A stretch of DNA of 34,792 bases from Gemmatimonadota bacterium (GTDB taxonomy: Bacteria; Gemmatimonadota; Gemmatimonadetes; Palauibacterales; KS3-K002): positions 1 through 34,792 of the forward strand of contig JBDHAL010000048.1 in NCBI GenBank assembly GCA_039588075.1, written 5' to 3'. A program made the position numbers and the translations under genes. Position 1 is the first letter of the stretch, and every line of letters starts with the position of its first letter. Below the pieces are notes generated by a model, which saw only the letters and a program-made list of their open reading frames with translations, was not told where the DNA came from and did no database searches. Shown one piece after another: positions 12,777 through 34,792 of the stretch.

Positions 12777-12860
12777 GGTTTTATCCTCGCTTGCGTCGGG
12801 GGTGGTTGGTTTTGGTCGGTGGACACTACGTCCGCGGGTTGCCGTGTGTTTCACTGTATC

Positions 12861-12980
12861 GACGACGACAACGACAACGACAACGATAAGACAACGACAG
12901 CGAGAAACGAGAAATCTCGCCGCCGGCCATGCCTTTTTCTCGTTTCTCGCTGTCGTTGTCGTTGTCGTTACCGTTGTCGT
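12861..12980. repeat. Long perfect hairpin built from GAC/AAC trinucleotide repeats, located in the divergent yggT / hemQ-Rieske intergenic region
   Basis: Left arm: gacgacgacaacgacaacgacaacgataagacaacgacagcgagaaacgagaaa. Loop: tctcgccgccggccatgcc. Right arm: tttctcgtttctcgctgtcgttgtcgttgtcgttaccgttgtcgtc. The inner 25 bp are perfectly complementary. GC content here is well below the genome average. Confidence 0.75.
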
Positions 12981-13092
12981 CAGTAGCACCAGAGAACCGC
13001 AACAAGCCGAAATCGGTTCTAACTAGATGGGAGAAAGCGCCGGTTGCCAGCAGCGGGCCGCCCTTGGGCAAGAACTAAGAGAAGGAGCAGCA

Positions 13093-14136
13093 ATGTCGGG
13101 CAAGGAAGAGAAGCGTCAGCTCGTCCGCTACCTGTTCTTCAAGCTGGACCCGGCGTGGCGCCGGCTGAATCTGGACAAGCAGATCGACCAGAAGATCGAA
13201 CTGGGCGACACGATCCGGGGCTTTCAGGCGAAGTCGCTTCTGCGGTCGTACAGCCTGATGGGTACGCGTGGCGAGGTCGATTTCATGCTGTGGCAGGCGA
13301 CGGAGGATCTGGAGACGCTGCAGGCGCTGGAGACGTCGATCTTCTCCACGCGGCTCGGGGCCTATTTTTCGACCCCGTACAGCTACCTGGCGATGACCAA
13401 GCGGTCGATCTACGACTTTCCCGATGACCCGGAGCATGACGACCGAATCGCCGTTCGGCCGCAGGATTCCCGGTACCTGTTTCTGTACCCGTTTACCAAG
13501 ACCCGCCCCTGGTACAAGCTATCGCACGAGCAGCGCCAGGAGATGATGAGCGAGCACGTGCGCGTCGGCCGCAAGTATCCCGACATCCGGATCAATACCG
13601 CCTACTCCTTCGGCCTCGACGACCAGGAGTTCATGGTCGGCTTCGAGGGCGACGACCCGGGCGCCTTCCTCGACCTGGTGATGGAGCTGCGCGAGAGCGA
13701 CGCTTCGGCCTACACGCTCGAGGACACGCCCATTTTCACCTGCATCCAGATGTCGCTCTGGGACGTCCTCGACTCGCTGGGCGGCGCCTCCGTGTCCGAG
13801 CAGGCGCGCGCCGCCGAGCGCGACGCCGACGGCTTCGTGCTCGCCGCGTCCGTGGCCGAGCTGCCGCCCGGCGCCTCGAAGCGCGTCTATAACGGCGCCG
13901 ACGCCATCGCCCTGTTCAACGTGGATGGGACGTTTTACGCCGTCAGCGACCGCTGCACCCACGGCCGCGCTTCTCTGAGCGAGGGCAGCGTGGACGCGAA
14001 GGAGTGCGTGCTCAACTGTCCGTGGCATGGAGGCAAGTTCGATATCAAGAACGGCGAACCGGCCGGCGGGCCGGTGCGGGCGGCGATCAAGACGTATCGC
14101 GTGAAGGTCGAGGGGGAGAATGTGTTGGTTGGTTGA
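13093..14136 (+). CDS. hemQ: Coproheme decarboxylase (HemQ/ChdC, chlorite-dismutase family) fused to a C-terminal Rieske [2Fe-2S] domain
   Basis: AAGGAG RBS before ATG 13093. HemQ hallmarks: VRYLFFKLDPAW, VDFMLWQATE, YLFLYPFTKTRPWYKLSHEQRQEMMSEHVRVGRKY, YSFGLDDQEFMVGFEGDDP, DLVMELRESDASAYTLEDTPIFTC. After residue ~250, Rieske box I CTHGRASL and box II CPWHGGKF (CxH...CxxH, 17-aa spacing). Confidence 0.85.
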   Translation: MSGKEEKRQLVRYLFFKLDPAWRRLNLDKQIDQKIELGDTIRGFQAKSLLRSYSLMGTRGEVDFMLWQATEDLETLQALETSIFSTRLGAYFSTPYSYLAMTKRSIYDFPDDPEHDDRIAVRPQDSRYLFLYPFTKTRPWYKLSHEQRQEMMSEHVRVGRKYPDIRINTAYSFGLDDQEFMVGFEGDDPGAFLDLVMELRESDASAYTLEDTPIFTCIQMSLWDVLDSLGGASVSEQARAAERDADGFVLAASVAELPPGASKRVYNGADAIALFNVDGTFYAVSDRCTHGRASLSEGSVDAKECVLNCPWHGGKFDIKNGEPAGGPVRAAIKTYRVKVEGENVLVG

Positions 14137-15264: not shown

Positions 15265-15778
15265 CGGTCTCGTCCAGTGACAGTTAAATCCAGGCAGTTC
15301 AACCCGCCTGGTTTTTCAACGGCTTACCGATGGAGGAGGGGCAGGCGCCACGTTAACGCCAAGGGGCAGGACTGTCAAGCCACCGCACCAGCAGATAGAG
15401 TTTGCAAGGTCTGTTCCCACCTTACCTACAGCCCATAAGCTCATATACTACAACGACTTCGGGTTTTCTCTCCCCCTGCCAATCACCCCAAAAATCGGTA
15501 ATAATTACCCATCTTTTAGGCATTTTTGACCGCCTCTGGCCCTTCCACGCCGCGTTACTGCCGGTGATCGGTAACCGGTAATCGGTGATCGGTAACCCCT
15601 TTTCCCCCACCGGTTACACGGGATCTCCACTACCTGTACGGGTGACCGAATAGGCCAGCACGATCGGGGGTACTCTTAAGTAGTAGAAGGCTGATCGCTG
15701 AAGTTGCGCCAAGCCTCGGACACCGGCAGAATAGACCCGTCCCACCCAATCGCGCGGTCCGCCACCAGGAGAAGGCTC

Positions 15779-16456
15779 ATGCTGGGGATCTACATTTTGG
15801 CCGCCATGCTGGGCGGCGGAATGCTCGTCATCTCGGTACTGAGCGGAGTGCATCACGACGCGGACATCGACGTCCACGGAATCGATGCAGATGTCTCGGG
15901 CATGGATGTGGATGTGGGCGGCGTCGACGTGGACGTGGATGTATCGGGCGTCGATGTGGATGCCGGCGGTCTGGACGCCGATCATGACGTCCATGGCGGC
16001 TACGAAGGGGCGGGCCAGCTGGTGCTGGGATTGTTCAGGCCGCGCAACATCATCTTCTCCCTTACCGCTTTCGGTCTCACCGGCGCGCTGCTCACGCTGA
16101 CGGGGAACCCCGAGAGCGCGACGCTAGGCCTCGCGATCGGGATGGGCGCCGGCGCATGGTTGCTCACCTACGGTCTCTTCACCTGGCTGAAGCGCAGCGA
16201 AAGCGTGATGGACACGGTGGGGGAACGGGAGATCGAGGGCCGGCCGGGCCGGGTCGTCCTGGCGCTGGAGCCGGGGAAGTCCGGGCGGATATCGTGCCTG
16301 ATCGGAGACCGCGAGCAGTATCTGACGGCGCGCCTGGCGCCGGAGGTGTCGAGGCAACTGGCGTCGGGCAGCGAGGTCGTCATCCTGCGGGTCGAGGACG
16401 GGGTGGCGGAAGTCATTCCGTTCGATGTACTGGAGTTACCACCAGCAGAAAGTTGA
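15779..16456 (+). CDS. NfeD-like membrane protein (partner of SPFH/flotillin proteins) carrying a D/H-rich repeat insertion
   Basis: AGGAGA RBS before ATG 15779. Transmembrane helices plus a C-terminal beta-barrel-like region (GRPGRVVLALEPGKSGRISCLIGDREQYLTARL...EVVILRVEDGVAEVIPF). Insert: HHDADIDVHGIDADVSGMDVDVGGVDVDVDVSGVDVDAGGLDADHDVHGG. Lies immediately upstream of and overlapping the flotillin gene. Confidence 0.7.
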   Translation: MLGIYILAAMLGGGMLVISVLSGVHHDADIDVHGIDADVSGMDVDVGGVDVDVDVSGVDVDAGGLDADHDVHGGYEGAGQLVLGLFRPRNIIFSLTAFGLTGALLTLTGNPESATLGLAIGMGAGAWLLTYGLFTWLKRSESVMDTVGEREIEGRPGRVVLALEPGKSGRISCLIGDREQYLTARLAPEVSRQLASGSEVVILRVEDGVAEVIPFDVLELPPAES

Positions 16457-29848: not shown

Positions 29849-29922
<74 letters not shown>

Positions 29923-30293: not shown

Positions 30294-31058
30294 CTACTCG
30301 ACAACCTTGCGGTGCGTGATGTCCTCCAGGGTCCCTTCGTAGTACAGCACCCGCCCCTCAGGATCCTCTACGGCCCGAGCGCTGCTCCGCACCCAGATGA
30401 GCGTTCCGTCACGCCGGCGAAATCGGACGTCGATGTCACGAGCAACACCTTGGCGGTCGATCAGGGCCTGCCACCGCCGACGCTCTTCCGGGTCCGCATA
30501 AAGGTCGGCGGCGCTGACTGCCTGCAGCTCCCGCTGGTCCACGAAGCCGAGCATGCGCACCAGCGCCGGGTTGGCGTCGAGAATCTGCCCCGAGGGAGTC
30601 ATTCGGTAGAGCCCCATGGGAACCCGGTCAAACAGGTCCCGGTAGCGGGCCTCGGCTTCTCGGGCCCTGCGGCGCGACCGGGCTCGGTCAAGGGCCAAAA
30701 GCGCCGCCGTCGGCAGCCGGCGAAAATGTTTCGGTGACTTAAGGACGTAGTCGTCCAGGCCCGCTTTCATCCCCTCCACCGCGATCTCCTCGTTCCCCGT
30801 GCCAGTGAACATGATCACGGGGCACCCGGGATATCGTTCCTTGACGGTATGCAAAACCGTCAGGCCGTCGGTCCAGCGCAGCTGGTAATCGGTGATCACC
30901 AGGTCGAAGTTGCCCCGCTTCAGTGCCCGGGCCAAGCCTTTTGCCTCGGTGACCTCCTCGGCGCGGAGGGCGCTGAACTCCCGGTCCAGTTCACGGATAA
31001 CCAGGGTGCGGTCGTCGGGGTTGTCGTCGACCAGAAGGAGATTCAGAGTGCGGCTCAT
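30294..31058 (-). CDS. Response regulator: receiver (REC) plus PAS domain, with no recognisable output domain
   Basis: LLLVDDNPDDRTLVIREL...DLVITDYQLRWTDG...LKSP are receiver-domain motifs. A PAS-like C-terminal half follows (YRDLFDRVPMGLYRMTPSGQILDAN...). Confidence 0.8.
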   Translation of the reverse strand: MSRTLNLLLVDDNPDDRTLVIRELDREFSALRAEEVTEAKGLARALKRGNFDLVITDYQLRWTDGLTVLHTVKERYPGCPVIMFTGTGNEEIAVEGMKAGLDDYVLKSPKHFRRLPTAALLALDRARSRRRAREAEARYRDLFDRVPMGLYRMTPSGQILDANPALVRMLGFVDQRELQAVSAADLYADPEERRRWQALIDRQGVARDIDVRFRRRDGTLIWVRSSARAVEDPEGRVLYYEGTLEDITHRKVVE

Positions 31059-31089
31059 CGTTCCTCAGCCTCTATGTCCCTCGCTGCTC

Positions 31090-31533
31090 TCAGACATTCG
31101 GTATCTCGTTTAGGATGAACCAGTACAGGTCGAGTGCCTTGACCATCTCTACCAAGCCAGTGGCGGTCACGGGCTTGACCAGATAGGAGTTGACTCCGAG
31201 GTCGTAGGCCTTGTCGACGTCTTTCGTCTCTTTGGAGCCGGTCAGCACGACGACCGGCAGGCGCTTCAGTCTAGGCTGTTGCCGCAGCCACTCGAGCACT
31301 TCGAAGCCCGACTTACGGGGCAGCTTCAGGTCCAGCAACATCAGCACGGGCAGTGGGGAGCGCTCTCGATCGGCATAGGGACCCTGACCGGACAGATAGG
31401 CGACCGCTTCGTCCCCATCTTCCACCACCTGAAGGGGATTGGCCAGCTTGGCCTTGCTAAAAGCCCGCTGGATCAGGAGGACGTCGTTGGAATCGTCCTC
31501 CACAAGCAAGATCGTCTCAGCCTGCGGAATCAT
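31090..31533 (-). CDS. Single-domain CheY-like response regulator
   Basis: ILLVEDDSNDVLLIQRAF...LPVLMLLDLKLPRKSGFEVLEWLR...PVVVLTGSKETKDVDKAYDLGVNSYLVKP. Its ATGA overlap with the upstream histidine kinase stop indicates coupling. Confidence 0.85.
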   Translation of the reverse strand: MIPQAETILLVEDDSNDVLLIQRAFSKAKLANPLQVVEDGDEAVAYLSGQGPYADRERSPLPVLMLLDLKLPRKSGFEVLEWLRQQPRLKRLPVVVLTGSKETKDVDKAYDLGVNSYLVKPVTATGLVEMVKALDLYWFILNEIPNV

Positions 31534-33173
31534 CTTTCCCCGTCCTCTTTGCGTACGTCTAACCAGAACTTGCTGCCCTCGCCAGGCGCGGATTCAACGC
31601 CGACGCGCCCGCCGAGGCGATCCGCCCCTTTGCGCACGATGGCCAGTCCGATCCCTGTGCCGGGGTAGGTCTCAATTCCGTGCAACCGCTCGAAGACTCG
31701 GAAGATCCGTTCATGATGGTCTGTAGCGATGCCGAGGCCATTGTCTTCCACCCAGAGGCGTATCCACCGGCCTCGCGGCTCTGCCCACACTCGCACCCGG
31801 GGCTTTACCCCTGGAGCCACAAACTTCACTGCATTGGAGAGAAGGTTCTCCACCATCCGCACCAGCGTGGCGTGGTGGCCACGGACCCGCGGCAGCCGCT
31901 TTTCCAGATCTACTTGAGCCCCGCTTTCTAGGACTTCGGCCTGGACGTGCTCCAGGGCATCGGCCAACACGGAGTCGAGAGGGACCGCCCTGACGTGTAA
32001 ATCCGCGCGGCTCAAGCGGCCGTATTCCAAAAGATCCTGGATCAAAACCTCCATGTTCTCAGCGGACGCGACGATCCGCCGGGCGTACTGTTGACCCGTC
32101 GCATCTAAATGATCACGGTAGCCCTCCAGCAGGGCGTCGGCGAAGCCCTGCATGGCCCGCAGCGGAGCGCGAAGGTCATGAGAAACGCTGTAGGTGAAAG
32201 CCTCAAGTTCGGAGTTGGCCGCTTGGAGTTCAGCGGTGCGCTGCTTGAGATCCTCATTCATCCTGCGGATCTCCAACTCCGCCCGCTTGCGCGCGCTGAT
32301 GTCTCGAAGTGTCGACCTGCTATAGAGGACATTTCCCTGGTCATCGCGTACAACGGAGACGTTGAGGCTGACATCAATCTTGCTTTCGTCCTTCGTTTTC
32401 AATTGTAGCTCGGCATCATGGACTTCGCCGGTCTCCACGACGGACCGGAATGCAATTTTGACATCGTCCATGCAATCAGGATGATAGACAAGAGATAGGG
32501 GCTGACCGACTATTTCTTCCTTGGTGTAGCCAAGGGTCGTGGCTAGTGTCCGGTTGCATTGCAGAATCCGCTTGGCCTTAGCGTCGACGGAAACGAACAG
32601 GTCAGGCGCGTCGTCATAGAGGTCTTGATATCTTTTCTCTGATTCCTTCAGCGCGGCTTCCGCCCGCTTCTGCTCAGTGACTTCCCGCACCATGGCTATA
32701 ACTCCTCCGACCATCCCATGCAGCTTGAAGGGGAAATAGCTACACACCCAGTCTCTTTCCACCTCGGGAGCTGCCAGGGTTGTGCCGTGGATGTCAATAT
32801 CGATCACGGGCTCACCCGTCTCCATTATTCGTCGCAGTAGTGGCTCCAGCGTCTGCGCAACCTCAGGGATAACTTCGCGGACTGTGCGTCCTATAGTCTC
32901 CGACACAGGCCTGCCATTTATTGCTGCCAGACACGCGTTGATGCGAAAATACCGAAGATCCGTATCGAGCAAACAAAGGCCAAGGTCAGCCTGCTCGTAG
33001 ATTTGTTCGAGCTCGGCTACCTTCGCACCCGCCGTGTGAAGCGTTGAGTCTAAGGCCCCCGACCCCCCCGTGCGCCTTCTCCCCTGCTCTGCTTTCTGCT
33101 CTTGAGGAAGCTGCCGACGCAGAGATTCCAACTCCACAATGAGTTGCTTTTTCGTCTTGTTCTGGTCCTGCAC
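31530..33173 (-). CDS. PAS/PAC-domain sensor histidine kinase, cytoplasmic
   Basis: Two PAS-like modules. H-box FTYSVSHDLRAPLRAMQGF. HATPase_c N/G boxes LLSNAVKFVAPG...VEDNGLGIA...GTGIGLAIVRK. Confidence 0.9.
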   Translation of the reverse strand: MQDQNKTKKQLIVELESLRRQLPQEQKAEQGRRRTGGSGALDSTLHTAGAKVAELEQIYEQADLGLCLLDTDLRYFRINACLAAINGRPVSETIGRTVREVIPEVAQTLEPLLRRIMETGEPVIDIDIHGTTLAAPEVERDWVCSYFPFKLHGMVGGVIAMVREVTEQKRAEAALKESEKRYQDLYDDAPDLFVSVDAKAKRILQCNRTLATTLGYTKEEIVGQPLSLVYHPDCMDDVKIAFRSVVETGEVHDAELQLKTKDESKIDVSLNVSVVRDDQGNVLYSRSTLRDISARKRAELEIRRMNEDLKQRTAELQAANSELEAFTYSVSHDLRAPLRAMQGFADALLEGYRDHLDATGQQYARRIVASAENMEVLIQDLLEYGRLSRADLHVRAVPLDSVLADALEHVQAEVLESGAQVDLEKRLPRVRGHHATLVRMVENLLSNAVKFVAPGVKPRVRVWAEPRGRWIRLWVEDNGLGIATDHHERIFRVFERLHGIETYPGTGIGLAIVRKGADRLGGRVGVESAPGEGSKFWLDVRKEDGER

Positions 33174-33925
33174 CTTACGCCTCCGACTCTCGCAGCACCA
33201 TCAGCGACGCAGATGTGAGTAGTCCAAGGTCCGGGTGCATCCTACGGTAGGTGCGAGAGGGGCGGGACCGGGCTCGGGGCGAAGCTAAGCGCAATTCCAG
33301 GGAGTATCGGCCGCCCCCAGCTGCCTTGGCCATCACAGGGGCAGCTTTCGACAAACTGCCACAACTAAGACCTCTGAACCAGGGGACCTCCACACGCGGC
33401 CCGATCTCAGCCCATCTCATTTGCCACGAATATGCCGGGACTGTTGGGGGAGGTCAAGGACACGGCTGGAGACTCGTAATCCGTTCCCAATCCGCATCAT
33501 AACAGCTAGTGAGAAGGCTCCTTCGTCAAGGCCGACGTGGCGGTCCTCATTGGCGAGGACGAGCCGACCGCTGGTACTCTGGGTGCCCTGTTGGGCCTGC
33601 TGTTGGAACGCTCATGCCGTTTCCCGTCGGTTGTCGTCGGTTCCTGCCTCCCGCTGTCCGGTGACGCCCCGCGGTTTTCTCTGCTTCCTCCGCCTACGTC
33701 GGCTCCTGCCTGAAATGGGATGCGGCAGAGTGAATGCGTTCGCTGTGCTAACGCTTACACGCTGAGAACCGGGGACCGCGAGACATTTACCTTGGCGTTA
33801 ATGGTGTCGATTGTGGTGTCGATTGATCCCGGCAAATCACGACGTTTTTCGGACGAAATGCAGGCCAATCACGCAGTCTGTCTTGGAATCACGGCAAGAT
33901 GTCGGGATTTAAGTGATATGAGCGG

Positions 33926-33970
33926 CGCCTGATAAGCGTGAGGTCGGTGGTTCGAGTCCACCCAGGCCCA
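33926..33970 (+). repeat. Perfect 45-nt direct repeat of the tRNA-Ile 3' half (attR-like)
   Basis: cgcctgataagcgtgaggtcggtggttcgagtccacccaggccca is identical to 29878-29922. Confidence 0.85.
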
Positions 33971-34792
33971 TAGCACATAAGATGAAGCCCTGTTTCCGGT
34001 TACGGAGCAGGGCTTCTCTACACATATGTTTTCAAATCGTCGCGATCGTGGTAACGGACAGCGAGGTTTGTTAGAAACATCTGTTTCAGCCGGCGGATCG
34101 AGTATTCCATTGAGTAGCCAGGGCATGACCGAGATGGCGTTCGCACATCGAGGCTGGTTGCCGGCGAGCAAAGCACACCGACGTTAACGGCTTCCAGGCC
34201 CCCACTCGTTTGCGAAACCTGTTGAGGTAACTAGGGGAGAAAGACATCCTACGAGGCCGGAGGCGTTAGAGCATCACACCGGCGCCGCCCCGATACTATG
34301 TGCTTGAAGCTTTATGTATGACATGTGTGAGCTTATGTTCGAGCGGCGGGCACCACCACTGACACCACACCTACCAAAAAGCCAGGTCTTTCTGGAAGCA
34401 CTCGGGGCGCCAGAGGGCTGAGCTGTTCTAGCCCCGCGGACAGAGGCGCAGGTGCAAGTATCAGTCTCCCGGAGGCAACCTAGAAGCGCGTATGAAGCAC
34501 AATTCCGTTATTGACGATTTCTTACGGGACATCGAGCCGAGTCCGCAGACGCAGGATTCCGTTGCCCGGCCATCGCGGTCGGTGCCGAACTGCAAAACGC
34601 AGGTCGCATCCCCGACAGTGTGGTGGACCGCCGTCCGACACCATCCCGGCGCGTTCCAGTTTCAGCCGCGAGCGGTTCACTTGTGCCGGTGGGCGATGCG
34701 CCCGCAGCGGTTCACTCTTTTCATGGTGCTCTCTCCGTGGTGTGAAAATGAAGGGGGTCCCTGAGGCTTTGTAACTCGCGGTAATAGTAGAG

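Follow-up and report, generated by a model that had tools for sequence, protein, structure and literature searches.

A coproheme decarboxylase fused to a Rieske ferredoxin domain in Gemmatimonadota, a candidate for electron-fed oxygen activation in haem synthesis

The last step of the coproporphyrin-dependent haem pathway, carried out by coproheme decarboxylase (ChdC, or HemQ), is the one least settled as to its in vivo oxidant, and the electron acceptor of ChdC is regarded as unresolved, being H2O2 or FMN (PMC13564367, PMC10427985). A gene of a Gemmatimonadota bacterium (assembly GCA_039588075.1, contig JBDHAL010000048.1) raises the question of what a [2Fe-2S] centre would do in this step. 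It lies at 13093–14136 of the 34,792 nucleotides that were analyzed as a whole, here called the window, and encodes a ChdC domain followed by a Rieske domain. The original prediction, made from the sequence without database searches, had read it as a ChdC-Rieske fusion in one gene; the open reading frame (ORF), the Pfam matches and the database clusters bore out this reading and its coordinates. The best explanation as a whole, to which we would give an even chance, is a two-domain ChdC-Rieske enzyme with electron-fed O2 activation.

The ORF 13027–14136 on the + strand was unbroken, and its product from the ATG at 13093 had 347 residues, identical to the database cluster P0001. This ATG was taken as the start because of the AGAAGGAG located 5 nt upstream and the 347-residue length of the database homologues. 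Pfam recognized Chlor_dismutase (PF06778) at residues 39–219 (E 1.3e-55, 188 bits against a cutoff of 25) and Rieske (PF00355) at residues 249–335 (E 5e-19, 68.5 bits against a cutoff of 20.3), while Rieske_2 and Rieske_4 matched the C-terminal part more weakly. All three families expected beforehand, PF06778 and PF00355 or PF13806, were thus recovered. The linker between the domains is ~20 residues long and predicted to be flexible.

The same architecture, whose presence in orthologues had been anticipated, was found in all 120 listed homologous clusters, which share 60–100% identity and come from NCBI, JGI, ENA and Logan assemblies. In Methylomirabilota, chdC and Rieske do occur as two neighbouring genes, but a sequencing or assembly artefact joining two such genes is hardly credible here, and we rejected a frameshift or chimera, including the indel at 13850–13900 that might have hidden two genes, because these assemblies are independent, the two domains share one frame with no stop between them at all 73 loci inspected, and the linker length is conserved among the fused homologues. 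In an alignment of 96 fused proteins, from which the conservation counts were taken, the four Rieske ligands and the proximal His155 were invariant (96/96), and Tyr132 was a tyrosine in 95/96.

A library of 1.84 billion 50%-identity representatives gave 8230 matches to the query at E ≤ 1e-3. Among the best 150 of these, four were full-length fused proteins (P0121, P0122, P0123 and P0125), showing that the fused family is narrow in sequence space, yet populous, especially in Gemmatimonadota, the source of 96 of the 101 fused sequences. The databases name these proteins “chlorite dismutase family” or “Rieske domain-containing” protein, and the automatic JGI name is [quoted passage not shown]. 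The architecture is therefore already recorded in databases, though undiscussed.

The Rieske domain carries the complete ligand set that had been predicted (CTHG-x17-CPWH), as C288, H290, C309 and H312. Its best solved relatives were the Rieske ferredoxins of dioxygenase systems, BphF (2e4p, E 2.3e-21), CarAc and TodB, with E values from 2.3e-21 to 1.2e-17, and C288-x-H290 and C309-x-x-H312 aligned with them column for column. These proteins (BphF 2E4P, CarAc 1VCK, TodB 3DQY) have the same size of ~100 residues, the same CxH...CxxH ligands and likewise no disulfide pair. They are, however, separate proteins that carry electrons from a flavoprotein reductase to a non-haem-iron oxygenase, whereas the fused domain is held on a haem enzyme by its linker. 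Its two ligand loops (CTHGRA ... CPWHGG) contain one cysteine each; the disulfide cysteines of the bc1/b6f type (CTHLGC ... CPCHGS) are not present, and the b6f Rieske protein was a weak match (E 3e-7). The mononuclear-iron catalytic domain of Rieske oxygenase alpha subunits was not detected, the protein ending 12 residues past the Pfam Rieske match (335 of 347). In NCBIfam, the NirD model TIGR02378 scored 46.6 bits, below its cutoff of 74.65, and the equivalog cutoffs of HcaC and AndAb were not reached. Judged by sequence, these features point to the low-potential, electron-shuttle class of ferredoxins. Stand-alone Rieske ferredoxins resembling the domain were found in Dormibacterota, Nitrospirota, Planctomycetota and others (L027–L080), none of them near a ChdC gene.

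For the N-terminal part, the best PDB sequence matches were the ChdCs from Streptomyces coelicolor and Corynebacterium diphtheriae. The AlphaFold2 model had a mean predicted local distance difference test (pLDDT) score of 81.7, and its best structural matches by Foldseek were also ChdCs, with a probability of 1.00 and template modelling (TM) scores of 0.74–0.86, normalised to the ChdC targets. The variant chains Y135A and W183Y of C. diphtheriae ChdC (CdChdC) served to calibrate the residue numbering. By alignment, the catalytic Tyr135 (Tyr147 in the Lm enzyme), the proximal His158 and Trp183 of CdChdC correspond to Tyr132, His155 and Phe180. Gln178 was invariant among the fused sequences and is a candidate counterpart of the distal catalytic Arg of chlorite dismutase (Cld), placed by match scores: the R173Q chain of Nitrospira defluvii Cld scored 53.2 bits against the window protein and the wild type 51.0.

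The identity to solved ChdCs was ~22–27% over the structural alignment, and the scores stayed below both NCBIfam equivalog cutoffs, with 122 bits against 235 for HemQ_actino and 82 against 253 for PRK12276. From the claim that residues 1–250 match actinobacterial-type HemQ closely, the ChdC assignment stood, owing to Tyr132, His155 and the operon linkage of orthologues, and the closeness did not. In sequence terms, the window protein belongs to a divergent clade that is neither the curated actinobacterial nor the firmicute HemQ equivalog, and because of this divergence, below the haem-synthase cutoffs, annotation pipelines give it only generic names.

Several residues were specific to the fused ChdC domains (F109, P110, Q30, Q219, W223 and V156). 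They were not used to define a docking surface, because the predominance of Gemmatimonadota among the fused sequences confounds this signal with phylogeny. Val156 (13558–13560), the residue after the proximal His, was Val in 95% of the fused proteins, with Ile prevailing in unfused relatives. In wild-type S. coelicolor ChdC this position is Gly169, and the best PDB sequence match was its engineered G169V variant (9MHQ). Some ChdC-family relatives were found without the catalytic Tyr, the proximal His or both: L023 (10001–10672, Pyrinomonadaceae, with Cys and Asn instead), P0163, P0174, P0198, P0202, P0233 and P0245. These are probably non-catalytic or repurposed paralogues.

No tetrapyrrole genes were found in the window, where the neighbours encode LemA, YggT, an M23 peptidase, a Band_7 protein and others, and none of the 17 close relatives (≥75% identity) had haem genes near the fused gene. 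A metagenome scan added 80 loci. A haem gene lay immediately downstream at 33 of 56 fused loci, compared with 1 of 21 loci of unfused relatives. All 24 Gemmatimonadales-type loci, with a ChdC domain 58–75% identical to that of the window protein, had uroD, then a ferrochelatase and a HemY-like oxidase gene directly downstream. Their proteins were 85–99.7% identical to clusters including P0116, labelled by NCBI as Gemmatimonadales. In L017 (GTDB label Phototrophicaceae, Chloroflexota), the fused gene was the first of eight overlapping genes, followed by ferrochelatase, hemA, hemC, hemD, uroD, a HemY-family oxidase and hemL; the oxidase and the ferrochelatase exceeded the NCBIfam cutoffs. The operons of L082 and L083 begin in the same way. 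The combination of UroD, a HemY-type oxidase, ferrochelatase and ChdC, with HemF and HemN missing, is characteristic of the coproporphyrin-dependent pathway (PMC10427985), and the gene context of the orthologues settles that this is the haem pathway involved.

Two further arrangements were seen at these loci. In L110 (3278–7529), the order was COX1, COX3, UbiA-family prenyltransferase, fused gene, URO-D, Ferrochelatase and Amino_oxidase, so that the genes for cytochrome c oxidase subunits I and III and a UbiA-family (haem O synthase-like) protein immediately precede the chdC-Rieske/uroD/cpfC/hemY-like cluster. This Gemmatimonadales-type arrangement may couple haem synthesis to the biogenesis of haem-copper oxidases. 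In L082 (4474–6138), hemA (glutamyl-tRNA reductase) and hemC (porphobilinogen deaminase) form one continuous ORF with no stop between them, which may be a HemA-HemC fusion.

We are highly confident that the window protein is a ChdC of the haem pathway. Another activity of the chlorite-dismutase family (chlorite dismutase, peroxidase, or an oxygenase on a different substrate), with the Rieske domain as its reductase component, would agree with the scores under both HemQ cutoffs, with the solitary gene in the window and its closest relatives, and with the bare database name “chlorite dismutase family protein”. It is nonetheless very improbable. The ChdC-specific catalytic Tyr and proximal His are conserved, sequence and structure match ChdCs better than Clds, and position 178, the candidate counterpart of the Cld catalytic Arg, is an invariant Gln, the higher score of the R173Q Cld being an indirect sign that this Arg is missing. 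Moreover, the orthologues stand tightly linked with uroD, ferrochelatase and the HemY-like oxidase in operons that lack hemF and hemN, and one orthologue is fused to AhbA/B.

The linkage between the two halves was also found outside the fused family. In three Methylomirabilota/Rokubacteria loci, a chdC of 231 residues is followed, after 10–25 nt, by a separate Rieske ferredoxin gene of ~100 residues with its own ribosome-binding site, an unfused hemQ beside a small Rieske ferredoxin as the original prediction had proposed to look for. Neighbour-joining trees, which were rough, without support values and give tentative indications only, placed the fused Rieske domains in one clade and the split-gene Rieske proteins among free-standing ferredoxins; in the ChdC tree, the Rieske-linked forms fell in three places. 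Together, these placements suggest one old fusion and at least one independent recruitment. The split-gene pairs support, as independent evidence, that the ChdC and Rieske halves work together. At one of these loci (L018), a B12-binding radical-SAM protein gene (Radical_SAM_N2, B12-binding and Radical_SAM; 83–1801) ends 10 nt before the split chdC (1811–2497), and the Rieske gene (2507–2824) is followed by MoaA.

One fused representative, P0122 (736 residues; L081 1867–4077; found on four Logan contigs), is a ChdC-Rieske-AhbA-AhbB fusion, with AhbA and AhbB, the two halves of siroheme decarboxylase, both above the NCBIfam equivalog cutoffs. The Ahb siroheme route makes coproheme without the H2O2-producing CgoX step. 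P0122 suggests a link between the ChdC-Rieske module and coproheme from this route, implying an aerobic finish to it. A siroheme route for Gemmatimonadota in general was rejected, as no AhbA/B homologue was found in the fetched loci except L081 and the Gemmatimonadales-type loci carry uroD, cpfC and the hemY-like gene; it was kept only for the P0122 lineage. Upstream of the P0122 gene there were a DUF1802 gene and an aldo-keto reductase gene. Among the 50%-identity representatives, the ChdC family showed other architectures as well, all unreported: Chlor_dismutase with DUF1802 in P0258 (397 residues), Peptidase_M48 with Chlor_dismutase in P0209 (474 residues), and an N-terminal PCP_red (protochlorophyllide-reductase 57-kD C-terminal) domain with Chlor_dismutase in P0128 (330 residues).

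Fused and unfused forms differed in sequence at the putative distal base. In CdChdC, His118 is the distal base that promotes Compound I formation from H2O2 (PMC10427985, PMC7611857). His115 of the window protein paired with it in the pairwise alignment, in a loop modelled with a pLDDT of ~36, and position 115 was His in only 21 of the 96 fused homologues. Unfused relatives commonly had a Y-x-x-x-H loop motif, as did all three split-gene ChdCs, and it was absent in 13 of 13 fused representatives. P0122 is without it, while its nearest unfused neighbour has YVDRHRH. As far as alignments tell, a conserved distal His base is not a feature of the fused clade.

How could the two domains then work together? 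In the mechanism that we propose, the ChdC domain would act as the terminal enzyme of the coproporphyrin-dependent pathway and bind Fe-coproporphyrin III via His155, with Tyr132 as the radical site for the conversion of propionates 2 and 4 into vinyl groups. The Rieske centre, tethered by its linker, would take single electrons from an NAD(P)H-dependent reductase and pass them to the coproheme iron of its own or a neighbouring subunit of the expected pentamer. O2 would be activated reductively (Fe3+ to Fe2+-O2, to ferric hydroperoxide, to Compound I), as in haem oxygenase or P450, with no need for free H2O2. Compound I would oxidise Tyr132, and decarboxylation would then proceed as in known ChdCs. 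In haem oxygenase, O2 is activated on the haem that is itself the substrate, the electrons coming from ferredoxin or reductase, and H2O2 can shunt this reaction. Haem is there both substrate and cofactor, as in ChdC; self-sufficient P450s are fused to their redox partners, and O2 is activated by supplied single electrons. The folds are unrelated to that of ChdC-Rieske and the reaction outcomes differ, so the likeness is a mechanistic analogy.

It is likely that the Rieske domain is the redox partner of the ChdC domain. An electron-donor character is indicated because its closest solved relatives are the reductase-fed shuttle ferredoxins of three-component oxygenases and because the high-potential disulfide cysteines are absent. 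Altered handling of the oxidant is suggested by the missing Y-x-x-x-H motif and by the fusion of P0122 to AhbA/AhbB, a route without CgoX peroxide. We infer that cluster and haem are redox-coupled, that electrons flow towards the haem and that O2 is used. That the domain feeds electrons to the coproheme iron so that O2 replaces H2O2 is, among the readings considered, the best supported one, with a chance somewhat short of even. More tentatively still, ChdC-Rieske may decarboxylate coproheme with O2 and NAD(P)H and without peroxide, and would then add a third mechanistic class to the two kinds of terminal haem synthase, H2O2-dependent ChdC and radical-SAM AhbD. In such a class, the tethered Rieske ferredoxin would drive a P450/haem-oxygenase-like O2 activation on the substrate haem, with coproheme coming from the coproporphyrin or the siroheme (Ahb) route.

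Several observations weigh against this mechanism. Both HemQ equivalog cutoffs were missed, and the haem role of the window gene rests on orthology, because the gene is solitary in the window and in all 17 close relatives. The absence of the distal His is only suggestive, because firmicute ChdCs without it use H2O2 (PMC7611857). Peroxide is in principle available, because the H2O2-producing HemY-like oxidase is co-encoded in most operons. No reductase gene recurred beside the fused gene in the operons examined. Finally, the AlphaFold2 model showed no confident packing between the domains (predicted TM score 0.66, linker pLDDT <50).

Electrons could also flow the other way. The Rieske domain would then be an electron sink, accepting electrons from the oxidative decarboxylation and handing them to a downstream acceptor, and haem would be made without O2 or H2O2. 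ChdC can use FMN instead of H2O2 as acceptor and may work anaerobically (PMC13564367, PMC5746218), the auxiliary [4Fe-4S] cluster of AhbD is involved in electron transfer according to work cited in PMC13564367, and among the carriers of the Rieske-linked genes there are some with a denitrifier label or from low-oxygen lineages (Ca. Kutchimonas denitrificans, L013; Methylomirabilota, L019). We nevertheless find such a sink unlikely, since the ChdC mechanism needs a strong two-electron oxidant for Compound I and the Tyr radical (PMC10427985), which a low-potential Rieske centre cannot supply, and since the haem-copper oxidase genes adjoining the fused gene in Gemmatimonadales-type loci indicate an aerobic setting.

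The alternative that survives best places the Rieske domain outside the catalytic cycle, either as a sensor or gate for iron, Fe-S or O2/redox status, or as a reductant with a protective or rescue function, which would quench ferryl or radical species formed off the pathway or reduce the product haem for hand-over. In both versions together it has a modest chance of being true. [2Fe-2S] clusters without an assigned role are widespread in ferrochelatases, those of Gemmatimonadetes included (PMC8529089, PMC10427985), ChdC degrades its own product under excess peroxide, and the accessory domain of PitA was proposed to protect or accept haem (PMC5746218). The lack of a dedicated reductase gene nearby in the operons examined would fit as well. 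The domain is, however, of the electron-shuttle ferredoxin type and not a known sensor Fe-S fold, the coincidence of the fusion with the missing putative distal base points to changed catalysis, and an independently recruited Rieske gene beside chdC is more easily reconciled with a stoichiometric redox partner than with a sensor.

We compared the ChdC-Rieske protein with known systems. Actinobacterial ChdCs (C. diphtheriae 6XUC/6XUB, S. coelicolor 9MIQ) have the same subunit of two ferredoxin-like folds, proximal His and catalytic Tyr, and share with the fused orthologues the pathway context of ferrochelatase, uroD and HemY-type oxidase. The fused family differs from them by the low identity, the replacement of Trp183 by Phe180, the lack of a conserved His118 equivalent, and the C-terminal Rieske domain, which is present in no characterised ChdC. 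In the CpfC-ChdC (HemH-HemQ) of Cutibacterium acnes, ChdC is likewise fused to another module that is informative on function (PMC8529089, PMC13564367). The partner there is the preceding enzyme, ferrochelatase, suggesting substrate channelling, whereas here it is a redox carrier, and ferrochelatase is encoded by a separate downstream gene in the orthologues. PitA of Haloferax volcanii, with an ABM-like and a ChdC domain, serves aerobic haem synthesis where coproheme comes by the Ahb route (PMC5746218), which parallels P0122; the accessory domain of PitA is no Fe-S electron carrier but an ABM fold that binds haem and for which haem storage or protection was proposed. AhbD catalyzes the same net reaction, from coproheme to haem b, and its Fe-S clusters handle electrons (PMC13564367). 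It differs by its radical-SAM/SPASM fold and by being oxygen-independent, with a 5'-deoxyadenosyl radical instead of a haem-derived oxidant.

The C. acnes protein and PitA were the only ChdC fusions discussed in the searchable literature. A ChdC/HemQ-Rieske fusion was not mentioned in searchable full texts, including the 2020 superfamily, 2023 structural and August 2026 Chem Rev reviews, so that within this literature, with an earlier mention in subscription papers being possible, the supposition that the fusion had not been described was right. The fusion provides a natural single-polypeptide system in which it can be tested whether electrons and O2 replace peroxide. It also shows that the coproporphyrin pathway, usually called Gram-positive, extends to abundant environmental diderm phyla (Gemmatimonadota, Chloroflexota-like lineages and Methylomirabilota), and the AhbA/B triple fusion suggests that the same module can finish siroheme-derived coproheme aerobically. 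If the proposal is true, engineered haem production would benefit from a haem synthase that works without peroxide.

Table 1 Coordinates of the chdC-Rieske gene and its parts in the window.
Feature	Position	Strand	Basis
Shine-Dalgarno sequence AGAAGGAG	13080..13087	+	Read from sequence; spacer of 5 nt to ATG 13093
Complete chdC-Rieske fusion gene, 347 codons plus stop	13093..14136	+	ORF list; Pfam two-domain match; cluster P0001, 100% identical
ChdC/HemQ (chlorite-dismutase-family) domain, residues 1–235	13093..13797	+	PF06778; PDB sequence matches; Foldseek
Domain-linking loop, residues 110–123, contains H115	13420..13461	+	Pairwise alignment with CdChdC His118; pLDDT <50
Tyr132 codon	13486..13488	+	Catalytic Tyr135 of C. 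diphtheriae ChdC by alignment to 6xub/7q4f
His155 codon, proximal haem ligand	13555..13557	+	CdChdC His158 by alignment
Flexible linker, residues 231–248 (GGASVSEQARAAERDADG)	13783..13836	+	Variable in two alignments; residues 236–242 with pLDDT <50
Rieske [2Fe-2S] ferredoxin-type domain, residues 249–347	13837..14133	+	PF00355, E 5e-19; PF13806, E 2.9e-11
First Rieske ligand motif, C288-T-H290	13954..13962	+	Aligned with CTHG of BphF, CarAc and TodB; C288 and H290 invariant, 96/96
Second Rieske ligand motif, C309-P-W-H312	14017..14028	+	Aligned with C-x-x-H of BphF, CarAc and TodB; C309 and H312 invariant, 96/96

The window has a G + C content of ~65%, and its nearest named relatives are Gemmatimonadota metagenome-assembled genomes. 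Between yggT (− strand) and the start of the chdC-Rieske gene, at 12854–12992, there is a long imperfect inverted repeat of (CGACAA)n and (TCGTTG)n hexamer arrays. Folded as DNA, this 139-nt hairpin reached −51.8 kcal/mol (z = −10.7). An 81-residue gene publicly annotated across it (L001 7698–7943) is probably spurious. As a regulatory element the hairpin was rejected, not being conserved in the 17 close relatives.

Downstream of the fused gene, a heptamer tandem repeat (CCGGTAA, 5.3 copies) is found in the intergenic stretch 15561–15597. A 27-nt tandem repeat (15903–15962, 2.2 copies) encodes a D/V-rich run in an ORF of 250 residues (15704–16456), which had no Pfam match and precedes the Band_7 (flotillin-like) gene. 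A tRNA-Ile (GAT) gene at 29849–29922 is followed by a stretch of lower G + C content (30294–34792; 0.56–0.61 vs ~0.65), encoding a response-regulator/PAS protein, a second response regulator and a PAS/HisKA/HATPase sensor kinase. This stretch may be a horizontally acquired signalling cluster beside the tRNA gene.

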